A stretch of DNA of 32,043 bases, taken from the IMG/VR virus record IMGVR_UViG_3300027212_000022, positions 1-32,043 of that record. One strand, 5' to 3'. Below the pieces are notes generated by a model. The model made no database searches. It was not told the DNA's origin and saw nothing but the letters and a program-made list of their open reading frames with translations. The DNA is from a virus (Duplodnaviria > Caudoviricetes). Positions 884 through 32,043 of the stretch are shown one piece after another. Positions within the stretch are counted from its first letter, which is position 1; every line of letters begins with the position of its first letter. Both the position numbers and the translations under genes were made by a program.

Positions 884-1078
884 TTATTGAACCCCAATTG
901 CAATTGATTGATTCGATGTAATTAATGCAAAAAACCATTCCGATCCCTCCGGAATTAATTCATTTGAAATCGTTTCATTTTTAACGATTGTATAAATTTT
1001 TTTTAATGTTTCAATGTCATTGTTGGCCGATGCGATTTCGGTCGCCTCCGATAATTTGGTCATTTGTTCGATTGTCAT
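884..1078 (-). CDS. 64-aa protein, candidate immunity partner of the MuF peptidase
   Basis: ATGA overlap with the stop of the upstream MuF-like gene. The function is inferred from position only. Confidence 0.55.
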   Translation of the reverse strand: MTIEQMTKLSEATEIASANNDIETLKKIYTIVKNETISNELIPEGSEWFFALITSNQSIAIGVQ

Positions 1079-2778
1079 TTTTTAAAATATTGCGTGATTG
1101 TTGATTTTTCGATATTGTATTCATCAAATAATTTATCCATAAAAAAACTAACTTTTGGATGTGTTTCAATTAACCATTCCGGCGCGTAAACATAGGCCGT
1201 AAATGATTCGGCCCAAAATTCTGAATGATTAACTTCGCCGTATTTTGTGGGCGCATCCGATAATTTTATTTTTAATTTTTTCATCAAATCTTTCATTTTC
1301 ACATGTCCTTTTGGATCCCCCCTATAAAATGCGATTTGATTTGGATCGACTTTGTTATGTATCAAATGTGCAAATTCATGTGTAATTGTTGGCGCAACGT
1401 TTTGATCGATAACACGCGAAACGGATGAAATCGTCCAAAATTTATTTCCATTAAAACGAGTTTTTGAAATCATCAAACATTCATCTGAATAATTACGTCC
1501 CTCAATTTTTTGATTGTCCTTTATTAAAACGGACAACATTGAATTGTCTGTATAACAAACGCCACCGGCATCACTTGGAACCTTTGCGATTTGTTTTGGA
1601 TTTATTTGTTGTTTTGATTTCCACAAATCCGAATTTGAATTTGATGATGGATTTCCACGTTCGGATTCATTTAATAATCCAACAACGGTTTTTTTTTCAT
1701 TTGCTATTTCGGCCGCGCCGTCTTGACCATTAACCAAATCAATAAAGTTTTTTTGAATGGATGGCGATTGTGTTGTTGCTAAAAATTCCGAATTGTATTC
1801 ATTTTTTTTATTTGCCGATTGATTTTTTTCATTTGTTTTATTTGCATCATTTAAAACTTCATTGATTTGTTGATCAACTTTCGTTTCAACTTTCGTTTGT
1901 TCCAATCCCAATTTTTCGCGTTGTGATTTGGTCAATTTGAAAGGGATGGCGGCGTGTCGACAATTATAACCGCCACGATACACGATAAAATTGTCCGGTG
2001 TTGTTCCGGAAATCATTCCGGTTCCGTTATTGTTGGCCCAATTTATTTCACTTTGCAATTCGGATTTTTGCAATACACGTTTTCCAACCCAACGTCGACA
2101 TTGGGGCCGTGAATCGTCAATCAATGAACCAACATATCGAAACGCATCCAATCCGAATTCATCGGCAATTCGCGCGTTTGTTTGGCCATCAAATTGGCCT
2201 AATGCGTCGCGTGATACTTGTTTCACATATCGTGAATAAAGGCCGTCAATATTCGGATTTCCCAAAACATAATTTCTCAAATATTCCTCCAATTGCGTTC
2301 GATTTGTTCCGGCGACGATATTTTGAAAAATACCTTGACGAACCGGTTCAATGAAATTTGTGTTCACGCCGGATCCGGTCAACCCGTTCAACGTTGTTTC
2401 AACGGCCAATTTTTGAACCGGTGAAACCAATTTTTCCAATTCGGATTTTGACAAATCGTTCACATTTTTATGAATGTCAAAATTGAAATCCGAAATCGTT
2501 TGAAAATTTCGTAAATATTTTGTGATTGCCGACGGCATGGTTGAACCTTGAATTGCGTCAATCATGATTCGATCCAATGAATTCACCAAATCAATGTTTT
2601 TTTCATCGAATTGAATTGTTCCACCCTCAACATTCAATTTGTTGATGGCCTTTTTTAAATCTTCAAAAATGATTTTTTCAACGTCATTCAATTGACCATA
2701 CAAATCCAATTCGGCCGTGTCGATTGTTTTGATTTTTTTATCAATGATTTTGATGATCGCGTCGGTGAATTCGGCCAT
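1075..2778 (-). CDS. MuF/SPP1 gp7-like minor head protein with a C-terminal zincin metallopeptidase domain
   Basis: Follows the portal. Has YVGSLIDDSRPQC...RGGYNCRH (minor-head signature), then THEFAHLIH and EFWAESFTAY. Confidence 0.8.
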   Translation of the reverse strand: MAEFTDAIIKIIDKKIKTIDTAELDLYGQLNDVEKIIFEDLKKAINKLNVEGGTIQFDEKNIDLVNSLDRIMIDAIQGSTMPSAITKYLRNFQTISDFNFDIHKNVNDLSKSELEKLVSPVQKLAVETTLNGLTGSGVNTNFIEPVRQGIFQNIVAGTNRTQLEEYLRNYVLGNPNIDGLYSRYVKQVSRDALGQFDGQTNARIADEFGLDAFRYVGSLIDDSRPQCRRWVGKRVLQKSELQSEINWANNNGTGMISGTTPDNFIVYRGGYNCRHAAIPFKLTKSQREKLGLEQTKVETKVDQQINEVLNDANKTNEKNQSANKKNEYNSEFLATTQSPSIQKNFIDLVNGQDGAAEIANEKKTVVGLLNESERGNPSSNSNSDLWKSKQQINPKQIAKVPSDAGGVCYTDNSMLSVLIKDNQKIEGRNYSDECLMISKTRFNGNKFWTISSVSRVIDQNVAPTITHEFAHLIHNKVDPNQIAFYRGDPKGHVKMKDLMKKLKIKLSDAPTKYGEVNHSEFWAESFTAYVYAPEWLIETHPKVSFFMDKLFDEYNIEKSTITQYFKK

Positions 2779-4698: not shown

Positions 4699-5781
4699 TT
4701 AACAAGTTAGATTTTTTGAACAATCACAATGTTCGAATTTTATATCGGCCCACCATCGCGTTCCGGTTTCATTATTTTTTCCAATTTCACCCTGGAAATT
4801 ATATTCGCGCCCGTCAATCATGACATCAGCACCGGCGATAATTCCAATCAATTTTTTCGCGAATGGTTGTGGCAATGGAAACGTTTTCATCGTCCATGAT
4901 TCACAAATTTGCGTTCCGGTTGTTTTGCGCGATGATTCAATGATTGATTTCGTAATTTGAAACGAATCGTTTTCAAAATAGGCCGGAACCCTTAGTTCGT
5001 TTGAATAAACAAATGGCGTTCCGCCTTGAACATTCGACCAATTGTTCCCGTAGTACATGCCAAAACAATCCGTTGATGAATAAACCGATGAAATCAAAAC
5101 CGAACGTTTTTCATTTTCGCAAACCTCCAATTTGAACGGTTCCGAACAAAAACAATCGACTTTGTCCGGATCGGTGAAAATTTCATTTATTGGATCCGTT
5201 GTTTTTGAAAAACAAAATTCAAAATAAAAACATGGATCCTTTAATAAAATGTTTGATATATAATCGGAAATGTATGTGAAATCAAATTCAATTTGTTGGA
5301 TTTGTGTTTCGGTCGATGTTCCATTGTATTCAAATGTTTCAAATTCGCCAATGAATTGATTTGAAATAATATCATCAAACAAACGGTTGTCAATTGGAAC
5401 GATTTCATCGTCACAACATGTTCGGATTTGAAATGATGCCATCCCCACAATTGTCGAAAACAAATTTGGTGTCGTCCATCCATCGTTCGTTCCAATAACC
5501 GCGTTATTTTGTTGAAATTGAAACGTGAATGTGTCGCCTATATTGAAAACATTCCAAAACGGCGAATCATTTCCGCACAAATTACAATTGACTGATTCGC
5601 CACAATCGCACAAAACCAATCCATCGCCAACAATCAATCGTGAACAATTCAATAATGTTCCACAATTGACAATTAGTTCATCGCATAATAAACGCGAATT
5701 TGGAACGGGACACGCGTTGATTTCCGAAATATCGCAATAAACAACATCGCCCAATTGATACGAATCAAATATTAATCCCAT
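4699..5781 (-). CDS. Cys-rich putative tail structural protein (360 aa, 21 Cys)
   Basis: Lies in the module downstream of the tape measure and looks beta-rich. No specific family recognised. Confidence 0.6.
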   Translation of the reverse strand: MGLIFDSYQLGDVVYCDISEINACPVPNSRLLCDELIVNCGTLLNCSRLIVGDGLVLCDCGESVNCNLCGNDSPFWNVFNIGDTFTFQFQQNNAVIGTNDGWTTPNLFSTIVGMASFQIRTCCDDEIVPIDNRLFDDIISNQFIGEFETFEYNGTSTETQIQQIEFDFTYISDYISNILLKDPCFYFEFCFSKTTDPINEIFTDPDKVDCFCSEPFKLEVCENEKRSVLISSVYSSTDCFGMYYGNNWSNVQGGTPFVYSNELRVPAYFENDSFQITKSIIESSRKTTGTQICESWTMKTFPLPQPFAKKLIGIIAGADVMIDGREYNFQGEIGKNNETGTRWWADIKFEHCDCSKNLTC

Positions 5782-5793
5782 GGTTCAAATTTA

Positions 5794-8610
5794 TTATAAT
5801 AATGACAAATATCCACAAACAATATATCGACCATTTCCCAAAGTTGAAATGTCCAATTCGGCCGTCGCGTTGTTTCCGGCGAAATCGTCGTCCATCAAAG
5901 CAACATTGAACAATTGCGGAATTCCGTTTGGCGATGGATTGTTTTCGGATTCCAAAATATTATTCACATTGCCGCCCAAATATGGTTCCATGAAAAATAT
6001 AAAATCGCCGTTTATGTTTGAATTATATCGAACACGAATTCGTTTGTAATCGTTTGGACAAAATGGATTTGTTACGGGAACAAACGCCGTTCCCGTGTTT
6101 AATATTCCTTGAATTTCAAAACCTATCAAATGTGAACTAATTGGCGCCACATTCGGTTCGTTTGGAATGGCGTTGACATCGAATGATTTGACCATGTTAA
6201 TGATGTACGGTGAACCAAACAATGGCGACAAATCTAATTGATAAATATATTCATAGTTGATTGTTCCATTTGACCAATTGTTGTTGATTCCCAATGTTGA
6301 AACATAGGTGTTCCCCAAAAACCCAACGTTTGTTCGATTCATGAATGTCGCCGTGTTTGCAACAAATACATTTGATCCATCGAATGGCGTGTTTTCCCAT
6401 CGAACGCGTGTCAAAAAATCGGTTGTGACATTGTTAAAATAATCTTTAACGATTAAATTCCCCAAATTTTGCCATCCGAACGGGAAACCGGCGACGCGAT
6501 TTGAAACGTGTTGTTCAAACATGAAAAACGTTGTTTCGGTCGCCGTTGGAAACGCGGCGTTTTTATAATAAACATTCAATGAAATCCTGGTCAAATATTG
6601 TTGGAAATAATCGCCGCCCCAATTTTCAAGGCAATCAATAAACGTCCCCACACTTATTTCAACATGATGTTGAATTCGTTCCTTTAATGTTGGACGAATG
6701 CAATTTGCGTTGATTTGTGAATTGAAATATTGGTTAAATGTTGAATCGGTTTCAACAACGCATGTATCACATGTTGAATCCGGTGTTGATGTGACCGGAA
6801 TTTGTTCGGAAATAAACGTGTTGACCATTGATCCATCGCCCGAATAAACGATTGCCGCCATTCGATATTTTCCAATCGGTGAAACGGTTGTGTCAACATA
6901 GGCCGAAACAATCCAATCGTCGCCGATATTCAATGAATTAACGGATGGCAAAACAATATGATTGTTTATTATTCCCGTTCCACCGGATGTTTGAATGACG
7001 GCCCGTGATGAATCGTAATTCGTTAAAAAATCGACGGTGTTATTTGTTCCGGTTTCATCGAATAATTCAAAAACACAATATCCCATCCCTCCAAAACTTG
7101 CATCGATTTTAACGCGAAACGTCACATTCGTTTTTTCAATTGTTGAAAAATTCAATTGTGTTCCGGTTGACCTGGTCAATTCAAATGTTGGCAATGGCGA
7201 CGTCCATCCGGTGAATTCCGACGGGCCGTTGTATAGCCCCAAATTATAAAAACGCGATGAATAATTCAATGAATTGTTCACGAAACATTCCGTTGGTTCA
7301 TCCAAAATCAATGTGTTTGGATCGCGAATGTATGTCAACGAACAAAGTTTTTTGTTGGCATTGTAAACCGAACCAATCAAATTTTCGTAATTCGAACCAA
7401 TTGCCGGATTCGGCGCGTTCACCGAATTTCGTCGCCATTTCGGATTGTTCAACAATGATGAATTCGCGATCCAATTTTCAATGTCGGAAATATGATAATA
7501 GTCAATTTGAATTTGAAAATTATTCGCGTCAACCCATCCGAAAACAACATCAAAATTTGTTTGACTAAATTGATTTGAACCCGTTCCAATTAAGTTCATC
7601 ACATAACCGGCCGGGTATGTCATGACGGCCGCGTTAACCTCAATAAACCAACCTTGTGGCGGCGGCGCGTTAACCGATGACGGATATTTTGAATCGAAAT
7701 CACATGTGAACGCAAACAACCAGGGATTGAACCAAACTTTGAATCCGGTGTCAATCGTATTCGCATAATTGAAAAAATATGTGATTCGTTTTTTGTCGCA
7801 AATCGCCGATTCGGTGAAAATGGTTGTGTCGGATGGACTACGAACAACGTCATTCATTAAAATTCCCGACGGGCCACCAGGTGTTTGAATTAACAATTGT
7901 TCCAAACACAAACAATCACATGGCGCCGGTGTTGATAATCCATCCAAATCAACTTTCGTACAAATACAAACGGAATCATCGGCGTTCAATACGCAAAAAT
8001 TGACATAACAATTCAAATTTTCATTCGGGCCGATTGGCAACCACGTACAATCAAAAGTTGATGAACCGCCGGATGGAATCGATAATGGAAAACCAACCGA
8101 AAACGCAAATTCATTTGGACAAATTCCATTGTCAAATGTATAATTAACATCAAATGATGTTGAATTTGATATTGTTATTGAAACCGGTGTTGATGCTGAA
8201 AATTGAACAACCGATCCGAAATCATGTGTTGTTGGCGAAACCGCGCCCGTTCCAAAAACAACCGCGTCAAAATTAAAAATTTGCGGCGTGTCTAATCCGT
8301 GTTGTGTTGTTTGAAAATTAATGGTTAATGTTTCCGGCGGCTTCATACCACAAACATCAAAAACAAGTTCAAACGTATCACCGGATTCGACTTGAAACGG
8401 ATATGATGGCGCCGCGCCGTTAATTGTAACAATTGTCACCGACCATGTCGTTCCGGAAAAACTCATTGAAATTGCTTCAACATCCAATCGCGTGTTGTAT
8501 ATATTTTCAACGTTGCATGTGATACGTTGACAACATCCCTCATAAATATAATTGATTCCAACACTTGAAGGAATCATACAATCGCCAAAACTAAAACGCG
8601 GAACCGCCAT
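5794..8610 (-). CDS. Large tail or adhesion protein with N-terminal Ig-like (ASH-type) domains (938 aa)
   Basis: DFGSV...SITISN...FPLSIPSGGSSTFDCTWLP pattern; position downstream of the tape measure. Confidence 0.6.
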   Translation of the reverse strand: MAVPRFSFGDCMIPSSVGINYIYEGCCQRITCNVENIYNTRLDVEAISMSFSGTTWSVTIVTINGAAPSYPFQVESGDTFELVFDVCGMKPPETLTINFQTTQHGLDTPQIFNFDAVVFGTGAVSPTTHDFGSVVQFSASTPVSITISNSTSFDVNYTFDNGICPNEFAFSVGFPLSIPSGGSSTFDCTWLPIGPNENLNCYVNFCVLNADDSVCICTKVDLDGLSTPAPCDCLCLEQLLIQTPGGPSGILMNDVVRSPSDTTIFTESAICDKKRITYFFNYANTIDTGFKVWFNPWLFAFTCDFDSKYPSSVNAPPPQGWFIEVNAAVMTYPAGYVMNLIGTGSNQFSQTNFDVVFGWVDANNFQIQIDYYHISDIENWIANSSLLNNPKWRRNSVNAPNPAIGSNYENLIGSVYNANKKLCSLTYIRDPNTLILDEPTECFVNNSLNYSSRFYNLGLYNGPSEFTGWTSPLPTFELTRSTGTQLNFSTIEKTNVTFRVKIDASFGGMGYCVFELFDETGTNNTVDFLTNYDSSRAVIQTSGGTGIINNHIVLPSVNSLNIGDDWIVSAYVDTTVSPIGKYRMAAIVYSGDGSMVNTFISEQIPVTSTPDSTCDTCVVETDSTFNQYFNSQINANCIRPTLKERIQHHVEISVGTFIDCLENWGGDYFQQYLTRISLNVYYKNAAFPTATETTFFMFEQHVSNRVAGFPFGWQNLGNLIVKDYFNNVTTDFLTRVRWENTPFDGSNVFVANTATFMNRTNVGFLGNTYVSTLGINNNWSNGTINYEYIYQLDLSPLFGSPYIINMVKSFDVNAIPNEPNVAPISSHLIGFEIQGILNTGTAFVPVTNPFCPNDYKRIRVRYNSNINGDFIFFMEPYLGGNVNNILESENNPSPNGIPQLFNVALMDDDFAGNNATAELDISTLGNGRYIVCGYLSLL

Positions 8611-8621
8611 ATTTTTATTTT

Positions 8622-10376
8622 TTATACAATGCCCGAAACTTGCATCGTTCGATTTACAAAATTAATTTTAACCTCTTTAACCTGGCCATTTTTTGCCGTT
8701 CCGTTTTGAATGATCCGAACCGTTTTTGAAAAATCAAAATTAGTCAAATCCGAACAATTGAATTGAAATGTGAAATCAAAATTAAAATTTCGCGCCGATG
8801 GCAAACGGGGATTGTCGATATAATGGAACAATGAATATAAATTGTTATTGTAACCCTCTTTAAACCACAAAGGATAATTAAACAAATTCGATGTTGAAAC
8901 CGTTTGACCGCCACTAATTACGGGCCCACCGGTGAACGATTCCGGATAATCATGTTTGATTGTTGCGTTTTGACGATCCACGCCGTCCCAAATTAACAAT
9001 TTGTAATTCATGGCCGTGTGTTGGTTCATCAACAACGCGTTTGTGTTTCCGGATGTCAATTGTCCCCCAAAAAACAAATTCAATAAACCGCCTTGAAAAA
9101 CGGCCAATATTTCAAATATTGTTCCCTCATTGTCAACGCCATCGGAACGGAAACGGGCCGGTGAAAATGGCAATGTGTTAATCAATTGACCTTTTTGAAT
9201 TGGATTATATGGATTGTTCCATTCAACGATGTCCGAATATCGTTTCATTGCTTCATTCCCAATGATGTCAATCGCATCCGGAACATATTCATATCGACCA
9301 AACGCGAATCGTTCATCGTCAATCCATGAAAAACATATTTTATTTTCCACAATTCGATTGTCGTTCATCAATTGTTCCGAATCAATCCATGACGCGTTTG
9401 AAATAAAATAATCCTTTCGTTCAAAATATAATGTGTTCCCGACGATTTGCCAATCGCCGTTGAATGTCGGTTTCAATAAATTATTCAAAAACGTTTCGGC
9501 CGTTTCGATTGGATTATTGTCCTCAATCATATCATCCGATATAATGTTTTCGTTTATACCTTTTTCAATCGTCGCGGAAAACAATAATAAATTGAAATAA
9601 GGTGACGCCGGATCGGTTAAAATTGTCGATTGAAAATTTAATCCACATTGTTCACATAAATCATCCAAATATTCGCGAACCAATCCCGTTGGATGTTTTT
9701 TGTTGCATGTGTCAAAAAATCCGACCATTACCGCCAACGAATCGCCCAATGAATCCAAAACACTATTCGGCGACAAATCGGCGTCGTCACATGTATCCTG
9801 GTCGCAATCGGTGAACGGAATCGCACAAACGATTGAACAAATCACGAAAAAAACGCCCGAAATAATTAAAATGACCAAAACAAATGGAATCAAAACCGTC
9901 GAAACAATATTTCCCAATAACGCCAATAAAAAACCTAAAATGATGTGCCACCATTTCGGCCGTCCCTCCAAACAATAATTGACATTTACGGGATGAATTA
10001 TTCTTTGACCAATGATTGGTTTTGATTCGATGCAATTATATTGCAATTCGTTTTCAATGACATTGGCCGTCACCGAACAATCCGGTTCACACCAATCCAA
10101 TGAATCGCCACGAACAATTCCAACGAACACCGGTTCGGAACAACACGAATCATAAATTTTAACATCGATTTTTTGATTGAATCCAAATGGATCATCAATC
10201 AATAATGTTTTTATTAATTGATAGCCGTCATCATAAAACGTTAATTCGGATGAAAACGATCGCGTTGTTTTTCCGGCGTTGTCGGTTCGCCTTAGTGTGA
10301 CCTCAAACGTTTCGATTCCATCAATTCGACCGGTCAACAATGCGTTGTTGAACGTGATTTTCATGTTTGAATTCAT
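8622..10376 (-). CDS. Tail-tip/hub-like protein with an internal hydrophobic segment (584 aa)
   Basis: ATGA overlap with the tape measure gene; beta-rich ends and a central hydrophobic stretch. Confidence 0.6.
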   Translation of the reverse strand: MNSNMKITFNNALLTGRIDGIETFEVTLRRTDNAGKTTRSFSSELTFYDDGYQLIKTLLIDDPFGFNQKIDVKIYDSCCSEPVFVGIVRGDSLDWCEPDCSVTANVIENELQYNCIESKPIIGQRIIHPVNVNYCLEGRPKWWHIILGFLLALLGNIVSTVLIPFVLVILIISGVFFVICSIVCAIPFTDCDQDTCDDADLSPNSVLDSLGDSLAVMVGFFDTCNKKHPTGLVREYLDDLCEQCGLNFQSTILTDPASPYFNLLLFSATIEKGINENIISDDMIEDNNPIETAETFLNNLLKPTFNGDWQIVGNTLYFERKDYFISNASWIDSEQLMNDNRIVENKICFSWIDDERFAFGRYEYVPDAIDIIGNEAMKRYSDIVEWNNPYNPIQKGQLINTLPFSPARFRSDGVDNEGTIFEILAVFQGGLLNLFFGGQLTSGNTNALLMNQHTAMNYKLLIWDGVDRQNATIKHDYPESFTGGPVISGGQTVSTSNLFNYPLWFKEGYNNNLYSLFHYIDNPRLPSARNFNFDFTFQFNCSDLTNFDFSKTVRIIQNGTAKNGQVKEVKINFVNRTMQVSGIV

Positions 10377-13300
10377 CGCGCTTTGTTTCTTATACGGTTG
10401 TTTTTATATTGAATCTTCGAAACGATTCCGTTGATTCCACGTTCATCGATGGACAAATTCAAACCCTTTTGTTCGCGAATTGCTTTCTCAATACGATCCA
10501 ACTTTCCATCCATTGAACGATTGTTCATCGTCATGATTTGCCCGTTCAATCCTTTCGCCAACAATGGATCCCGTCCGGAATGGATCGCCTCCAATAAAGG
10601 CCGGAACCTTTGCGTTTTTTCCTTTGTCACAACGAATTCACCGCGATGGACAATTCCGGCCGGTTGATATTTGCCACCGTCGCCCGTGTAACCACCCGTC
10701 GCGAATGACGCCGCCGCCCTTGCCTGGGCCCTTGCCGCCACCAATCCGGCCGCCAATGCGATCAATGTCGCGGCAATCGTAAACGGCGCCGCCGCGCCAC
10801 CTTCGGCCGCCGCCTTTGAAATGGCCACCGCCGAATTCGCCACCAATTCAATCGCCGCCAATGCTTGTTGTGCGCGAACGAAATTGGCCTTTTTTTCGTT
10901 CAGTTTATTCAAACGATCCTCCTCAATTTGCAACAATTCGGCGTTTCCCTTTTCGGCGATTTTCGCGGCCGCGTCAACACGTTTTTGTTGTGCGTTAATT
11001 TGTCCCTCTGTTTCGGAAATGGCGGCGTTCAACGCCGTGTTTGCCAAATCAATGGTCGCCTTTGCCACTTTCTCAATCCCATCCAAAACCGCTTGTTTTC
11101 TTTCATCGGCTTGTTTTTTCGATTCGGCCGTGTTTTCATCGTCCAACGCCATGATTTGGTCGCCGAAATCTTGACGCGCTTTCAAAATGTCCAAATCGGC
11201 TTGTTTCTCAATTAACACCCTTTCATCGGCCGTCAATTTAACATTCAATAATTCGGCGTCCCTTTTGCTTTGAATCCCTTGAACGACCAAACTTTCCTCG
11301 GATTGAATTGAATCCTTTAAATCGCCTAAATTGGCGTTCAATTGTTCTTTTATGGCGTTTCGTTCGGCCGTTGATCGTGACGCCGCGAATTGTTCAATCA
11401 AAAATCCTCGTTGACGTTCGATTTCGGCCGTGTTTTGTTCAACCTCTGTCAATTGACGATCCAAATCAACTTGACGAATTTCGGCCAATGTTTGATTTCG
11501 TTTTTCCGCCGCTTGAATTGTGACCTGGTTGATTTCATCATTTGTTTCATTAACGACTTTTAATGTTTGCAATCGTCTAACCTCAATGAATTGTTGTTCA
11601 ATTCCGGCCGTTAATGTTCCGGCTTCACGCGCTTTGTCGATTCGGTCTTTTATCGTGTTGTTGATTTCATCGATTTCGAATTGGGCCAATGCTTTGATTT
11701 TCGTTTTCTGTTCATCCAATGATTTTGGATCGATGAATTCAATCGGTTGTTTTTTAACCTCAACACCCAAATCACGAATTTCACGTTGCAAATCTAAAAT
11801 CAATTCACGGCGTTTGTCACCTAATTTTTCCGCCGATTTCGCCGATTCATCGTCAACCTTTTTAATCGTTTGACCGGAATCAACAATTTTTTTTGAAATA
11901 TCATCAATTGATTTTGTTGTCAAATCATATTGGGCCTGTAAGGCCTCAACATTTCCATAAATTTGATTTTGTAAATTTTTTGCGTTGTCCAATTCAATTT
12001 TTTGATCAGTAACGGAAACGAATCCCGTTTTTTTCTGTTGTGCTTTCAAATCGGCCGCCGCCTGTCCCTCCTTTGCCTTAATCAATTTTTCCTCCAAATC
12101 CAATTGTTGTTTTGTCAATTCAACCAATTGTCCCTCCGCCGCTTTCGCGAATGCCACTTGTTTAATTGAATTAACTAAATTTTGATATTCGGCGTCTAAT
12201 TGTTTGATGAACTTTTTTTCGTCCGTGATGTTTTTGATTGTCGTTCCATATTGACCATTTAATTGATCAATCAATTTTTTTCGTTCGGCCGATCCGGTGT
12301 TGGCCGATTTTATTTCCTTGACTAATTTGTTCAATTCGGAAATTGATTTTGCCGATTCCGCGTTTGCCTCGGTGTTTGCCGTCGTCAACGCCGTTTGTGA
12401 ATCCAATAATTTTTCGGTTTGAACCGCCGTTTCCTCAACCGAATCCCCAAAATCAACGAACAACGCCGCCGCCGTCGCCAATAATCCAACAATCAAACCA
12501 ATTGGATTCGCTTTCAACGCCGCGTTGAATCCTGTTGTTGCAATGGTCGCCGCGCGTGTTGCCACCGATTGCGCCGTCGTTGCGCCCGTCATTAAATTGG
12601 TCGCCGTCGTCGATGCGCGTGTGAATAACGCCTTTGCACGTTGAACAACCAATCCAATTTGTTCCTGTATTAATAACGCCTTAAATCGCAATTCATAAAT
12701 CAATTGTTGTTGAATTGCCGCCTTTTGTTGGCCAACATAAAACGCGACCGCACCGGCCAACAACAACAACGCCGTTTGGTTTTCCTCAACGAACGCCGGA
12801 ACCTTTTGAATTGCCGTGATAAAATTGAACGCCGCGTCGGTTAATGTTTCGAAAATTGGCAATAATCCCGTTCCGATGGATCGTTTCAATTCGTCGAACT
12901 TTCCGACCAATGTGGACAATCGACCGGCCGTTGATTGTGACAATTTATCGGTCAATCCGAAAAACCGGCCACCCTCCGATGTCAATGATTTGAAACCGTC
13001 CTCCAAATTTTGAAACGATATTTGTCCCTCGGATCCCAATTTTTTCACCTGGGATTCGGAAACACCCAATTGTTTCGCGAATTCGCCAATGATAGGAACA
13101 CCGGCCTCGGTTAATTGGTTGATGTCCTCGGCAAATAATGTCCCTTGAACACGGGCCTTTCCATAGATCACGGCCAATTCGTTGAAATCCTTTCCGGTCG
13201 CCGATGCAACGTCACCAATTCGCCCCAATGTCGTCGTTAATCCATCAACCGGTTCGCCAAATGCTAACAACGCCTTTCCGGCCTGGTTAACCTGTTCCGG

Positions 13301-13639
13301 TGTGAATGGCGTTTTGATTGAAAATTGGTTCAAATCTTCGAATACTTGTTTCGCCTTTTCCGCCGACCCCAAAAACGTTTCCAATGATATTTGAACGGTT
13401 TCATAATTCGAAACCGCTTCAATGGCGCCCTTTCCGAAATCAATCGCCGATGCGGCCAATGAAACGCCACCAAACGCCGCCGCCGCGCCAGTTAATGTTT
13501 TTTTCAATCCGGTCAATTGGGATTCGGCGCCCTTTGTCGCCGTTCCAATGTTTCCCAATCCGGCTTTGACGGCCTCCAATTCACGACGCAATTGAGCCGT
13601 GTCCGCTTGAATTTTGAATAAAACGTTTTTAACCGCCAT
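10373..13639 (-). CDS. Tail tape measure protein (1088 aa)
   Basis: Tape-measure domain motifs (KTPFTPEQV, DINQLTEAGVPI), Ala-rich and coiled-coil sequence, C-terminal FATGGYTGDGGKYQPAGIVHRGEFV. Confidence 0.95.
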   Translation of the reverse strand: MAVKNVLFKIQADTAQLRRELEAVKAGLGNIGTATKGAESQLTGLKKTLTGAAAAFGGVSLAASAIDFGKGAIEAVSNYETVQISLETFLGSAEKAKQVFEDLNQFSIKTPFTPEQVNQAGKALLAFGEPVDGLTTTLGRIGDVASATGKDFNELAVIYGKARVQGTLFAEDINQLTEAGVPIIGEFAKQLGVSESQVKKLGSEGQISFQNLEDGFKSLTSEGGRFFGLTDKLSQSTAGRLSTLVGKFDELKRSIGTGLLPIFETLTDAAFNFITAIQKVPAFVEENQTALLLLAGAVAFYVGQQKAAIQQQLIYELRFKALLIQEQIGLVVQRAKALFTRASTTATNLMTGATTAQSVATRAATIATTGFNAALKANPIGLIVGLLATAAALFVDFGDSVEETAVQTEKLLDSQTALTTANTEANAESAKSISELNKLVKEIKSANTGSAERKKLIDQLNGQYGTTIKNITDEKKFIKQLDAEYQNLVNSIKQVAFAKAAEGQLVELTKQQLDLEEKLIKAKEGQAAADLKAQQKKTGFVSVTDQKIELDNAKNLQNQIYGNVEALQAQYDLTTKSIDDISKKIVDSGQTIKKVDDESAKSAEKLGDKRRELILDLQREIRDLGVEVKKQPIEFIDPKSLDEQKTKIKALAQFEIDEINNTIKDRIDKAREAGTLTAGIEQQFIEVRRLQTLKVVNETNDEINQVTIQAAEKRNQTLAEIRQVDLDRQLTEVEQNTAEIERQRGFLIEQFAASRSTAERNAIKEQLNANLGDLKDSIQSEESLVVQGIQSKRDAELLNVKLTADERVLIEKQADLDILKARQDFGDQIMALDDENTAESKKQADERKQAVLDGIEKVAKATIDLANTALNAAISETEGQINAQQKRVDAAAKIAEKGNAELLQIEEDRLNKLNEKKANFVRAQQALAAIELVANSAVAISKAAAEGGAAAPFTIAATLIALAAGLVAARAQARAAASFATGGYTGDGGKYQPAGIVHRGEFVVTKEKTQRFRPLLEAIHSGRDPLLAKGLNGQIMTMNNRSMDGKLDRIEKAIREQKGLNLSIDERGINGIVSKIQYKNNRIRNKAR

Positions 13640-24580: not shown

Positions 24581-24615
24581 AAAAAAAACGCGTGACAACC
24601 GCCACGCGTTTTTTT
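24581..24615. terminator. Bidirectional intrinsic terminator ending the late operon
   Basis: A8-CGCGTG-acaaccgc-CACGCG-T7. Confidence 0.85.
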
Positions 24616-24666: not shown

Positions 24667-25086
24667 TTATGCGTTCACTTTGCGTTCCATGATTGCCAAA
24701 AATACATGTGACAACGCCGCCATCGGAATGAACCACCAAAACGAAATCGAAATGGATGTTTTGGTGACCATAAAAACGGCCAACGCCACCCAAATGTTCA
24801 TACAATACAAACAACCTCCCATTGGCTTATATAACACCTTTAACGGATTGCGTTCGTGTTTGATCCATGTTTCCAAAAACCGCCCGTAAAACGCGAAGAT
24901 TTGACCAGGTTGAATAATGAAATCAATAAACAATGAAATCGCCATCGTGAACGTCGCCATGGCCGTGATCCAAACAATCGTTGAATTTGTGTTGATAGTT
25001 GTGAAAAATGTCGCCGCCGCAAAACCGAACATGGCCCCGACAATTAACAAAATTGTGTTTTCAATTGGTTTTTTTGCTTTTTTCAT
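24667..25086 (-). CDS. 4-TM membrane protein with a CLYC motif (DUF1360-like; candidate thiol oxidoreductase)
   Basis: Four hydrophobic segments, with KPMGGCLYCMNIW at the start of the third. Start moved to the ATG at 25086. Confidence 0.7.
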   Translation of the reverse strand: MKKAKKPIENTILLIVGAMFGFAAATFFTTINTNSTIVWITAMATFTMAISLFIDFIIQPGQIFAFYGRFLETWIKHERNPLKVLYKPMGGCLYCMNIWVALAVFMVTKTSISISFWWFIPMAALSHVFLAIMERKVNA

Positions 25087-25096
25087 TTTTTTCAAA

Positions 25097-25402
25097 TTAA
25101 CATGATGGAATGATTCCGGAAACCTCAAACGAACACGCGCCGTCCGATGTCGTCAAATAATAAAAACCATAACCCGAAAAACCGGCGTCAACTTTTATTT
25201 TGATGATTGTCGTCGAATTTTCATTGAATGTAAATGGTAATGTCAAATTTAAACCAAACGTTCCCGTTCCTATTATTGTCGTGAAACCGGTGTTGGAAAA
25301 TATTTCGAATATATAATCGCCCGTGTATGGCGCCAATATTCCAAAATTTATTTGGTCGTTTGGTAAAAAACAACCGATGTGTTTTGTGCAACCGCAATTC
25401 AT
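25097..25402 (-). CDS. Small Cys-rich beta protein (101 aa)
   Basis: MNCGCTKHIGC...GACSF...IIPSC. Confidence 0.75.
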   Translation of the reverse strand: MNCGCTKHIGCFLPNDQINFGILAPYTGDYIFEIFSNTGFTTIIGTGTFGLNLTLPFTFNENSTTIIKIKVDAGFSGYGFYYLTTSDGACSFEVSGIIPSC

Positions 25403-25430: not shown

Positions 25431-26000
25431 TCAACACGATGGCGTTGAACACGGATTCAAACAATAATATTCCAACGACATGTCACGATCCCCAACCAAA
25501 TCAAAATCAAACGCAATAAACGTCAAATTTTTATCAAATGGTTTTACAACACCTTTTGGCGATTCCTCAATCACAACCGCCATTGGATCAATCGTTGATT
25601 CAATTGGTTCAATTGATACATTGGCGAATGATGAATTGGAAACCAATCCGGCGTTCATGATTGCAAAACGAATTTTTTCCTCAAAACAAACCGGATCGGA
25701 ATTTCTCAAACATGCGACGACGCGTAAATTGTAACGCATCCGATAAAAATTTTGCATCGCCGCGAATTTTTTGGATGTTGATGTTTCCGAAAATTGAATT
25801 TTCCCATCGTTCCGCAATCGGATATAAAAATATCCATCGTCGCGATCATGGATTCCGGCGAACACGTATTCATTTTGATTCAAATCGCGTTTCAACACGC
25901 GGCCGTCGTCGTCAATCTTTGCCAAATAAATGGCCGTTTTCATTTCGGGAACATTCGTTTTGATCGAATCAACAATGATTTGAATTTGGTCGTTTGTCAT
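25431..26000 (-). CDS. Putative tail terminator or neck protein (189 aa)
   Basis: Follows the neck-type gene; size and alpha/beta pattern fit. Positional inference. Confidence 0.5.
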   Translation of the reverse strand: MTNDQIQIIVDSIKTNVPEMKTAIYLAKIDDDGRVLKRDLNQNEYVFAGIHDRDDGYFYIRLRNDGKIQFSETSTSKKFAAMQNFYRMRYNLRVVACLRNSDPVCFEEKIRFAIMNAGLVSNSSFANVSIEPIESTIDPMAVVIEESPKGVVKPFDKNLTFIAFDFDLVGDRDMSLEYYCLNPCSTPSC

Positions 26001-27629: not shown

Positions 27630-27743
27630 TTATCGTGTTGGTTTCGGTCGTTGAACCGGACGCGATGTTGGTCGTTGTGTTGGCCTTGGTTTTGACGTTC
27701 CACAATTACAACCCTTAAAAATGATGTCGTTTAATTTTATCAT
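27630..27743 (-). CDS. 37-aa GCNCG and Pro/Arg-rich peptide (missing from the ORF track)
   Basis: MIKLNDIIFKGCNCGTSKPRPTQRPTSRPVQRPKPTR; starts 12 nt after the upstream stop. Confidence 0.6.
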   Translation of the reverse strand: MIKLNDIIFKGCNCGTSKPRPTQRPTSRPVQRPKPTR

Positions 27744-27755
27744 GATGTTTATTTG

Positions 27756-28700
27756 TCAAGGTAAACCATACACAAAACGTGATTGGTTGCATGTGATACA
27801 AATGTCGTCCATCCTGGCAAATAATGACGGCAATGAATCGATGGATGTTTTGAATGTTGATTCATATTGTTTTTCAAATTCGGCCAATAAAAATTCACAT
27901 TTGGCCGAATCTAACAACGTCACCGAATTCAACCGGTCGGTCGTTAATGCTTCTTTAACAATTTCGATTCCGGTTCGATATAATATTGGGAAACGTAGTT
28001 TTTGCGCCAATACACAACCGATTTCATCAACCGAACATTCGGCCGCCGCGTTCACGACCAAACCAAACGACGTTGATGTTGTGGTTGATCCCGTCCATCC
28101 ATTGGCCACCAAAAATTCCGATTTCGTTGTGGAACAATTACATGATCCTTTCACTTTCGTTTTGTTCGGATTGATGGCCGTGTTGTCCATTGTGACATAT
28201 ATTTCGGATGTGTTCGATAAATAGTCAACGAAAATTTCGGCGTCACCGTTTGCATCTGTTGTAAATGGAAACGAAATATTGTCAACGCCATCAAAAATTT
28301 GAATCGAATGAACCAAATTTGTTTCAAGGATTCGGATTTTGATTGATTGAACACGAATTCGCAACATTCGCGAATCACGCGTTTGAATCCGGATCCCTTT
28401 GAAATTATTCGACGGCAATTCGAACGTCGATGTGAATTCGCCAATCTTCAATTCATCGACCAGGGATTTCATTCGAAAATAAGGTGACGCAAATTTTGAA
28501 ATATCATCCAAAACCAATTGTGTCGCGAAATCAATTTTTTGCATCAACAACGAAATTCCCGACGTCGTTCCGGAATCGGCAATATCGGCCGCGAACCTTA
28601 AATTGATTCCCTCCAAATCATCAACATATAATCCGGATTTCGGTGTTGTTAATGAAACACATTTAATTCCAATAAAATTTTCAAAACAATTTGTCGCCAT
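27756..28700 (-). CDS. Cys-rich putative head-tail adaptor or structural protein (314 aa)
   Basis: Helical ends flank a beta insert; late-operon position; 9 Cys. Confidence 0.5.
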   Translation of the reverse strand: MATNCFENFIGIKCVSLTTPKSGLYVDDLEGINLRFAADIADSGTTSGISLLMQKIDFATQLVLDDISKFASPYFRMKSLVDELKIGEFTSTFELPSNNFKGIRIQTRDSRMLRIRVQSIKIRILETNLVHSIQIFDGVDNISFPFTTDANGDAEIFVDYLSNTSEIYVTMDNTAINPNKTKVKGSCNCSTTKSEFLVANGWTGSTTTSTSFGLVVNAAAECSVDEIGCVLAQKLRFPILYRTGIEIVKEALTTDRLNSVTLLDSAKCEFLLAEFEKQYESTFKTSIDSLPSLFARMDDICITCNQSRFVYGLP

Positions 28701-29682: not shown

Positions 29683-30225
29683 TCAAATTCCGTCCAAATT
29701 TACGGCCACACCACAATAATTCAATGTCGCCGTCCATGAAATGGTTCCGTCAAAAAATATTGAACCGGTGTTATTGTCCTCAATAACCTGGTCAATTTCG
29801 GTTTGAAACGATGCAATCGGCCCGTAAAAATAGCCGTCACATGTATAATATCCGAATTGATAATTCGTCGCGTTTGCTTGGATTGTGTTCCAAAATGTGA
29901 TGTCGCCACACGCCGCCGGATCCGAATTGTAATCTTGGAACGTGATTGTTTTTTCACCGCCAACAACCGCCTCCGGGCCACATGACGAAATTCGTTTTTT
30001 CGTGAATGAACCTTTTGGTTTTTGGCCAATGATTAATCCCGTCAAAACGATGTCACCGGCCGCGATGGCCGTGATCCATTCGTTGCGATCTTCGATGTCC
30101 GTGAATGTGTAATCACATTTAATGAACGCCAATTTTGAAATCCCCCCGTTTCTTGTAACCACGCCACAACCGGCCGATGGGGAAATCGGTAACGCCGGTG
30201 CACATGAACTTGGACATAATGCCAT
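29683..30225 (-). CDS. Putative major tail tube protein (180 aa, 8 Cys)
   Basis: Co-transcribed with the capsid ahead of a terminator (fits high copy number); GGISKLAF motif; beta-rich; typical size. Confidence 0.6.
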   Translation of the reverse strand: MALCPSSCAPALPISPSAGCGVVTRNGGISKLAFIKCDYTFTDIEDRNEWITAIAAGDIVLTGLIIGQKPKGSFTKKRISSCGPEAVVGGEKTITFQDYNSDPAACGDITFWNTIQANATNYQFGYYTCDGYFYGPIASFQTEIDQVIEDNNTGSIFFDGTISWTATLNYCGVAVNLDGI

Positions 30226-30258: not shown

Positions 30259-31284
30259 TTAAGGACATGCAACGATTGTCGAACAATCTTTGAAATTGAA
30301 TGTGTAATTCACGCCGAAATTGTCGTCGGTTGCCGCGAATGAATTCGATGGCAAATAAAACACGCCCCAATTCAATGACAATTTCATGATCCATTGATCC
30401 TGGCAATCATCATAATGAACCTTTAAATCATAAGTTAAACCGGTGAATGGATCCGTGATTGTTCCATGTTCGAACACATCATTTCGTTTTGCGTAATCGC
30501 CAACATATTTGTTCCACGTAACCAATTGAACCGCGTTTGGTGCCAACACGATGAATTCACCGGCCCCAATTACACCCTCAACAAAACGGTCGTTGAAATA
30601 CATGTAATCAGTCCAACGGGCCATATCGGTTCCGGTTGTTGAATTACAACATGCGATTTGTTGTGTTTTTGCATACAAATCAAAATTTCCCGAACCGATA
30701 ATCATCGGCGCACCCGACGCGCCAACCATGTCCAATTCATGCGTGATTTGTGCGGCGGCGATTGAACGCGGCGCGTTTGTCGTTCCCTCAAATAATTTAA
30801 CGGATTTCAACGATGTTCCGTCGGAAAATTTTCCAAAATTAGTTGATTGCTCGGTCAACAATTGTTTGTTCAATGCGACGTTCATCGCGTTGATTTGTGC
30901 CATCATGACGTTCGATGTATAAACCGAATCGGCCTCACATAAACGACGCATGTCGGATTCCGAAAATCCCATTCCTTTCGTTTCAATGCAATTTTCAATG
31001 TTGAAAATTGTTTCCAACGGTTCAATCACCTGGTCAACATCGCAATTATTTGTGCAAGTTAAATTGATTGAATCATCCGTTCCGCGTTGAATGTAGTTGA
31101 TTTGAACGCCACGATATTTTCCGTTGGTTGGAATTTGAATTGCTTCAAATCCGGCGCGATTTTCATCGCTCATTAATGCGTCTAAGTAACCGACGCGATC
31201 ACGTTTTAATGATGGCGCGTTTTGACCGGCCACCGCGTTCAAATTTTGTTGTAAATTGGAACATAATCCCTCTGTGAATGCCAT
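30259..31284 (-). CDS. Major capsid protein (341 aa, 10 Cys)
   Basis: Follows the scaffold; size and long-helix pattern fit an HK97 fold; TITDPFTGLTYDLKV. Confidence 0.8.
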   Translation of the reverse strand: MAFTEGLCSNLQQNLNAVAGQNAPSLKRDRVGYLDALMSDENRAGFEAIQIPTNGKYRGVQINYIQRGTDDSINLTCTNNCDVDQVIEPLETIFNIENCIETKGMGFSESDMRRLCEADSVYTSNVMMAQINAMNVALNKQLLTEQSTNFGKFSDGTSLKSVKLFEGTTNAPRSIAAAQITHELDMVGASGAPMIIGSGNFDLYAKTQQIACCNSTTGTDMARWTDYMYFNDRFVEGVIGAGEFIVLAPNAVQLVTWNKYVGDYAKRNDVFEHGTITDPFTGLTYDLKVHYDDCQDQWIMKLSLNWGVFYLPSNSFAATDDNFGVNYTFNFKDCSTIVACP

Positions 31285-31469: not shown

Positions 31470-32043
31470 TTATTGTTGACCGAATGTTTTCATTGATTTC
31501 AATGATTCGGCGTTTTCCTGTGCTTTTTTCAACCCTACCAAATTAAATGTCGGTTTGTCGCCTCCATTCGTCGGTTGTGTTGACGTTGTTTGTTTGTTTG
31601 GTGTTGGATTATTTGGATTGCCGTTTGATTGTTTTACAACACCCAACGACGCCAAATGTCCATCCAATATTTCGTCAAATGTAACGATTTTTGTTCCATC
31701 CAAATTCAATGGATTCAAATTGTTTTTTGTTTTGACAATTAATTCGCCGGAATCATCAACATCGACGTTGAAATTTTGGTTCAAATAATTGTTCACGGCC
31801 GGAATCACAACATCGGATGAAACGATCAACGATTTTTTCGCGATCATCGAATTGATGATTGATTCACGTTTGAACGATTTAATTGCGGCCTTTGCTTCGT
31901 TTTCCTTTGCCGGAATGATTTCATCAACCAAACGTTTGTTTTCGTTGGTTAATTCAATCAATCGATTTTGCAGTTCCTCGGCGCCCGTGTTTGTCGCCCT
32001 GGTTGATTTCTCAAATGCCACGTTGATGATATCGTCGAACTTT
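31470..32043 (-). CDS. Capsid scaffolding protein, 3' part
   Basis: Continues in frame from 588..1 through the terminal repeat. Confidence 0.75.
   Translation of the reverse strand, partial: KFDDIINVAFEKSTRATNTGAEELQNRLIELTNENKRLVDEIIPAKENEAKAAIKSFKRESIINSMIAKKSLIVSSDVVIPAVNNYLNQNFNVDVDDSGELIVKTKNNLNPLNLDGTKIVTFDEILDGHLASLGVVKQSNGNPNNPTPNKQTTSTQPTNGGDKPTFNLVGLKKAQENAESLKSMKTFGQQ
31704..32043. repeat. Terminal direct repeat, copy 2
   Basis: Matches 1-340. Confidence 0.97.

Follow-up and report, generated by a model that had tools for sequence, protein, structure and literature searches.

How do virions and spore coats acquire disulfide bonds in the reducing cytoplasm? The question is left open in the accessible part of a preprint on the Jabs virion, which reports about 1,700 disulfides and treats their catalyst as an open question. 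It is also posed in the accessible text on the spore-coat protein CotY, which ascribes the bonds to cooperativity (PMC4950064). The locus described here is the last late gene of a phage with Cys-rich late proteins, and it encodes a small membrane protein with a single CxxC motif.

The window (the whole stretch analysed, 32,043 nucleotides) is nearly the whole genome of a tailed phage, in which terminase, portal, tape measure, amidase and RecT were recognised by family profile matches. Positions 1-340 and 31704-32043 are identical at 339 of 340 bases; this overlap of its ends makes the record a circular assembly some 31.7 kb long. A Cys-free, scaffold-like gene crosses the circular join and has a product of 273 aa in L001. 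A homologous gene run found in a genome from the Bacteroidota points to a host in this phylum, and the gene order is maintained in 25 related viral loci. Eight late ORFs of the window have a Cys content of 2.6-5.8%, against a median of 0.62% across 47 control phage loci, which bears out the Cys-rich virion operon described in the initial annotation. In contrast, the tape measure protein (10373..13639, minus strand) has no Cys in 1088 residues and the portal has 0.8%. The Cys-rich late ORFs are putative capsid, tube, adaptor and tail-tip proteins, their roles being taken from position because informative family matches are absent. On the minus strand we thus annotated a putative major capsid protein (30259..31284, 10 Cys in 341 residues, from position and size without a family match), a putative tail tube protein (29683..30225, 8 in 180), a putative head-tail adaptor (27756..28700, 9 in 314), whose homologues retain 8-11 Cys down to about 20% identity, a putative neck or tail-terminator protein (25431..26000, 5 in 189) and three genes after the tape measure in the presumed tail tip region (4699..10376, 15 in 584, 25 in 938 and 21 in 360). 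In several relatives (L011 and L014-L025, at about 4700-5500 of those loci) an extra protein of 274-286 aa with 12-14 Cys is encoded after the tube gene, and it resembles part of window 5794-8610. Elsewhere, the product of window 1075-2778 is minor-capsid-like in its N-terminal part, while its C-terminal region bears an HEFAH motif and is possibly a zinc metallopeptidase-like domain, with weak Pfam matches under the cut-off.

The gene of interest (24667..25086, minus strand) encodes a protein of 139 aa, P0001. It had been described as the last late gene, in agreement with the strong 15-pair hairpin between A and U runs that follows it (24582..24615, minus strand; z -5.9, with none of 200 shuffles equally good). 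This hairpin is likely the late-operon terminator and was absent from the output of a simple terminator scan. Directly upstream of the membrane gene in the close family lies the gene of a 101-aa protein that starts with MNCGC and contains 5 Cys (25097..25402, minus strand), probably a virion protein. A basic, Pro-rich peptide of 37 aa with a GCNCG motif is encoded at 27630..27743 (minus strand) and is a candidate shuttle or staple.

P0001 is hydrophobic throughout and has exactly two Cys, which form a CLYC motif at residues 92-95 (24802..24813, minus strand). The AlphaFold2 model, made with a 91-row alignment (mean pLDDT 86.7), contains four long helices (7-30, 36-58, 93-111 and 116-138) and two short ones (65-75 and 81-91). 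One non-helical residue, C92, opens helix 93-111, which the motif caps, so the four hydrophobic helices and the CLYC at a helix start noted from the sequence were recovered in the model. The Lys and Arg residues are found at positions 2-6, 69-87, 109 and 135-136. Because their excess sits in the loop before the CxxC and in the C-terminus, the predicted position of the motif is on the cytoplasmic side, as the initial annotation had argued by the positive-inside rule. All 17 homologues of the four-helix form show this charge bias, as do 69 of the 70 with three helices, which makes 86 of the 87 phage-type rows classed; four of the 91 rows fit neither form. It is also seen in 35 of 36 Bacillales homologues. 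The homologue search returned 87 representatives, and in the 91-row alignment the first helix is missing in 70. C92 and C95 are invariant in all 91 rows, which were gathered with Cys-bearing queries that favour hits sharing the query Cys; no further column is invariant, and W99 is present in 80 rows. A second Cys pair is absent from the P0001 chain, and no other conserved Cys column was seen among the 91 rows.

Judged by profile and predicted fold, P0001 is a distant member of the DUF1360 family (PF07098/PHROG 781). PHROG 781 matches P0001 (E 2.6e-5) as well as AWGoat gp16 and Bacillus members, and hhalign of the P0001 family gave 85% (E 6e-6) against Bacillales members and 95% (E 2.3e-8) against actinophage members. 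With Pfam, no match to P0001 was obtained at E ≤ 0.05 and a PF07098 search of the whole genome found nothing; the same profile weakly matches 16 of the 91 homologues (best E 1.3e-4). The best BFVD rows for the model, none at E ≤ 0.001, include DUF1360-labelled models and a 139-aa protein of crAss001 (TM 0.64). Like B. subtilis YjcA, crAss001 gp97 and the actinophage 'membrane protein' encoded before the portal, P0001 has a predicted three-helix membrane core, an amphipathic loop and a C-x-x-C-x-x-x-W helix start. This last feature opens the second-last helix in the P0001 family as in DUF1360, and is invariant in 36 Bacillales rows, themselves selected on the motif. P0001 differs from the DUF1360 members by one additional N-terminal helix, and it has no RLTRLxxxD signature, whereas Bacillales and actinophage members do.

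P0001 had initially been read as an inverted enzyme of the DsbB/VKOR kind. By sequence, this identity gave way to DUF1360: at E ≤ 0.05 the 91 members together match 15 Pfam families, and neither DsbB nor VKOR is one of them. Foldseek of the model on the PDB returned nothing at E ≤ 0.001. In VIA-align against 48,161 chains no hit reached Z ≥ 8; the highest Z, 7.1, belonged to unrelated helical proteins, and the best 50 rows contain neither DsbB nor VKOR chains. Searches of the PDB sequences with profiles of the phage family, the Bacillales family and the Milano peptide described below gave nothing meaningful. We also rejected an Erv1/Alr identity, P0001 being hydrophobic throughout and having no PF04777 match. 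PF04777 was found in none of 80 records searched, window included, in a search run with no positive control, and on the same count Erv1/Alr was rejected as a replacement enzyme in phages that have only the peptide.

We next consider whether Cys-rich shells accompany the gene, as had been suggested; the answer depends on the branch of the family, and homologue and control regions were compared in bulk, without gene-by-gene matching. Upstream of 26 more distant homologues, of Bacteroidota type, the genes have a median Cys content of 1.80%; in 32 low-GC controls it is 0.54%. Downstream of the actinophage homologues there is no enrichment (0.78%, n=55, against 0.83% in 15 high-GC controls, p 0.28). 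AWGoat has just 2 Cys in its capsid protein and 2 in its tail-tube protein, and only its adaptor is Cys-rich. A mycobacterial prophage with a DUF1360 gene encodes a 10-Cys adaptor and an MGCGC peptide, with no Cys in the portion of its tape measure that was retrieved. A phylum-wide search of Bacteroidota found a homologue in 1 of 201 genomes, in a phage-like remnant and after a Cys-rich adaptor-like gene, and a plasmid search with the AWGoat homologue gave no match.

The DUF1360 family is not confined to phages and also occurs in Bacillales, where co-occurrence with Cys-rich shell genes is again seen. The gene there is one that we take to be yjcA, from its position on the B. subtilis map. Scanning genomes for the motif yielded 120 matches, of which 80 had flanks and 64 were scored, the others being 14 without an ATG-started motif ORF and two chance matches. 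Out of 45 yjcA-type loci, 32 have an ORF of at least 6% Cys within 2.5 kb, compared with none of 19 loci of a second subtype and with 3 of 290 farther ORFs. Nine of the 12 Cys-rich neighbours tested are CotZ (PF10612), and the coat genes adjoining yjcA-type genes are mostly of CotY/CotZ type. In B. spizizenii the DUF1360 gene stands back to back with a five-gene cot cluster, presumably the cotVWXYZ of the B. subtilis map, and is directly followed by a 38-aa ORF ending in KKKGCGCGKKK (L638:5745-5858). The second subtype keeps the CxxC yet has neither a Cys-rich neighbour nor a GC[N/G]CG peptide (0 of 19 loci). Its genes (L068, L081-L083, L088 and others) often lie between those of a LysM-CAP protein and an FAD/Rieske oxidoreductase, the latter being possibly another redox partner of this subtype. 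According to the accessible parts of the respective papers, yjcA is under sigma-E control (PMC517825) and occurs in most Bacilli while being absent from Clostridia (PMC3533761). The text available on CotY describes its multimers as disulfide-linked and its lattices, when expressed in E. coli without sporulation genes, as resistant to heat and DTT (PMC4950064).

A short basic GC[N/G]CG peptide gene, recognised by sequence, travels with DUF1360 in the window, in related phages, in actinophages and behind yjcA. The initial suggestion that small Cys peptides could be partners thus stands in so far as this is the most widely shared partner gene of the family. Peptides were scored by a single rule (short basic ORF with GC[N/G]C[G/S]) that was fixed after the first cases had been seen, and all phage and Bacillales samples are clustered by descent. 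Of the 45 yjcA-type loci, 23 have the peptide, always on the same strand and in 19 cases 240-390 bases beyond the CxxC; among the 16 unscored loci it is present in 4, each of them a Bacillales record. Among phages it is present in 11 of 25 close loci, and within 10 kb in 6 of 28 more distant ones and in only 5 of 73 of actinophage type. Altogether, 22 of 126 phage loci having the membrane gene hold the peptide, against 1 of 80 terminase-motif control loci.

A reverse test started from the peptide: an MGCNCGK scan gave at least 120 matches, and 50 of the larger records were searched. PF07098 matched 17 of these 50 records and 1 of 49 controls (Fisher p 3e-5, not corrected for relatedness, a value that overstates the evidence because the records are related by descent). 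With local profiles, a homologue was found within 10 kb in 14 of 80 peptide-picked records and in none of 80 controls. The one control that PF07098 matched, and only weakly (E 0.006, under the cut-off), is L260/G220, the sole control locus that holds the peptide. Its 90-aa membrane ORF has CPIC, and the locus is the most Cys-rich of the 47 scored controls (1.86% against the median of 0.62%). Among the 14 peptide-carrying records that are at least 90% complete, 6 have a Pfam match, 2 more were recognised by local profile or by eye, and 1 has a protein of the Milano type; in 5 no membrane CxxC candidate was found, one of the five not having been inspected by eye. Members of a low-GC group of phages of 30-34 kb (G256, G271, G280 and G284; L612-L619) have MGCNCGK-starting ORFs of 59-102 aa, and no membrane CxxC candidate was seen in them. 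The MGCNCGK motif is very common among viral contigs, and it also starts proteins of 190-215 aa in L476, L480, L486, L505, L542, L544, L551 and L553, records mostly rated as small fragments of large genomes.

Two virions with known disulfides bear on the function of the pair. In crAss001, gp97 is a homologue (E 9.6e-16) annotated as DUF1360. Its gene sits outside the structural block, the capsid is Cys-poor, and no coding match to the strict GC[N/G]CG motif was found. The accessible description of crAss001 has disulfide-linked tail hubs, rings and vertex protein (PMC10172136), and that of Milano a DTT-sensitive disulfide network in the virion (PMC10491603). Milano gp4 has a CPCC ahead of a hydrophobic helix, gp5, adjoining it directly downstream, is a 42-aa MGCGCGK peptide, and the tape measure has no Cys in 778 residues. 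The gp4 family profile matched DUF1360 with a probability of 41%, so that kinship is only a lead suggested by sequence, and an Atlas search found no family for the Milano-type protein. In the loci of the gp4 family, 27 in total, downstream Cys is raised (1.39%, n=17) and the peptide is present in 5 of the 19 scored. A further phage, G279, has a Milano-type CPCC protein and the peptide; its putative tail genes (L625:5403-16500) are extremely Cys-rich (18 in 510, 23 in 411 and 24 in 303).

The motif, its conservation and the gene neighbourhoods are what we observed. By analogy, it is likely that the DUF1360 protein helps form the intracellular disulfides that hold Cys-rich shells together. As to how, we lean towards P0001 being a cytoplasm-facing membrane thiol oxidase with a separately encoded GC[N/G]CG shuttle peptide. 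The peptide would oxidise shell cysteines and the membrane CxxC would then reoxidise the peptide. In DsbB and VKOR the CxxC is oxidised by quinone, and here too a membrane carrier, most simply quinone, would take the electrons from the CxxC. Yeast Erv2 carries its shuttle Cys pair in a CGC tail; since P0001 has no second conserved pair, the short CxC peptide may supply one in trans. The substrates would be the outer virion proteins in this phage and the CotY/CotZ/ExsY-type crust or exosporium proteins in Bacillales. Against this reading speak the lack of Cys enrichment beside actinophage homologues and the rarity of the peptide there, its absence from crAss001 together with the Cys-poor capsid of that phage, the second Bacillales subtype with its CxxC but no Cys-rich neighbour, and the CotY lattices that form in E. 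coli without sporulation genes.

The same genes could be read as a structural staple and its anchor, the CxC peptide being cross-linked into the shell and tethered or chaperoned by the membrane protein through its CxxC, with disulfides forming uncatalysed once the lattice is built or at lysis in air. In keeping with a structural role, Milano gp5 is annotated as virion-associated because it resembles a 7-7-1 protein. The accessible account of Milano also offers a solved precedent in LP2, a 38-aa Cys linker (PMC10491603), and for CotY the available text argues that bonding is spontaneous or cooperative (PMC4950064), an idea also raised in that of the Jabs preprint, whose authors suggest that bonds may form at lysis or later. 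However, one peptide motif accompanies unrelated shells, namely the spore crust and several phage architectures, which a shared membrane partner fits better than a shared structural site, and, as a weaker point, gp5 has no match among solved chains. We therefore consider this reading unlikely. Metal handling is distinctly unlikely. CxxC and GCxC are common metal-binding motifs, and the pair might bind Zn, Cu or Fe and load or strip metal on Cys-rich shell proteins, protecting their thiols until assembly. A polar residue near position 127 would be a potential third ligand, but third and fourth ligands are not conserved (His127 in 33 and Asp55 in 50 of the 91 rows), and the solved virions having this gene or a look-alike show disulfides. 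That the pair instead keeps shell Cys reduced, or reshuffles wrong bonds until assembly ends, is very unlikely: a CxxC by itself is silent on the direction of electron flow and CxC motifs can isomerise disulfides, but the cytoplasm already contains thioredoxin and low-molecular-weight thiols, which leaves less need for a dedicated membrane reductant than for an oxidant.

Returning to the membrane thiol oxidase, a broader proposal can be made, which we hold only tentatively and with some doubt. DUF1360 and the basic GC[N/G]CG peptide might form a two-part, membrane-driven cytoplasmic disulfide machine that sporulating Bacilli share with tailed phages whose hosts span at least three phyla, and be the missing catalyst of stapled virions and of the CotY/CotZ crust. 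DUF1360 itself is already catalogued; what is added here is the parallel with the spore crust, the peptide common to both settings, and controls run blind and in reverse. In the accessible parts of the literature naming DUF1360 no function is assigned, and our search of the open-licence literature found no proposal of this function under yjcA, UPF0713, yngL or PF07098, nor of a phage or spore-coat disulfide oxidase. One gene family and a mostly unannotated peptide thus link the virion and spore-coat cases. If the proposal is true, a natural cytoplasm-facing membrane oxidase would be a tool for producing disulfide-bonded proteins in bacteria.

DsbB and bacterial VKOR are small helical membrane proteins in which a CxxC opens a membrane helix. 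P0001 resembles them in its predicted model by a helix-capping CxxC in a membrane helical bundle, and differs from them in that the second, shuttle Cys pair is absent from the chain and the CxxC is predicted to lie on the cytoplasmic side. The poxvirus E10 and baculovirus P33/Ac92 sulfhydryl oxidases, according to the accessible part of a published account (PMC11654684), are like the proposed system a virus-encoded disulfide route for particles built in a reducing compartment; they belong to the soluble, FAD-dependent Erv/QSOX type, whereas P0001 is a membrane protein. Disulfides are solved in the Milano, crAss001 and Jabs virions and in the window phage are only suggested by its genes. As in these virions, outer proteins rich in Cys would be combined in the window phage with a tape measure that lacks Cys, and two of them also have a counterpart of its membrane gene: crAss001 encodes a DUF1360 protein, and Milano a CxxC membrane protein together with the peptide.
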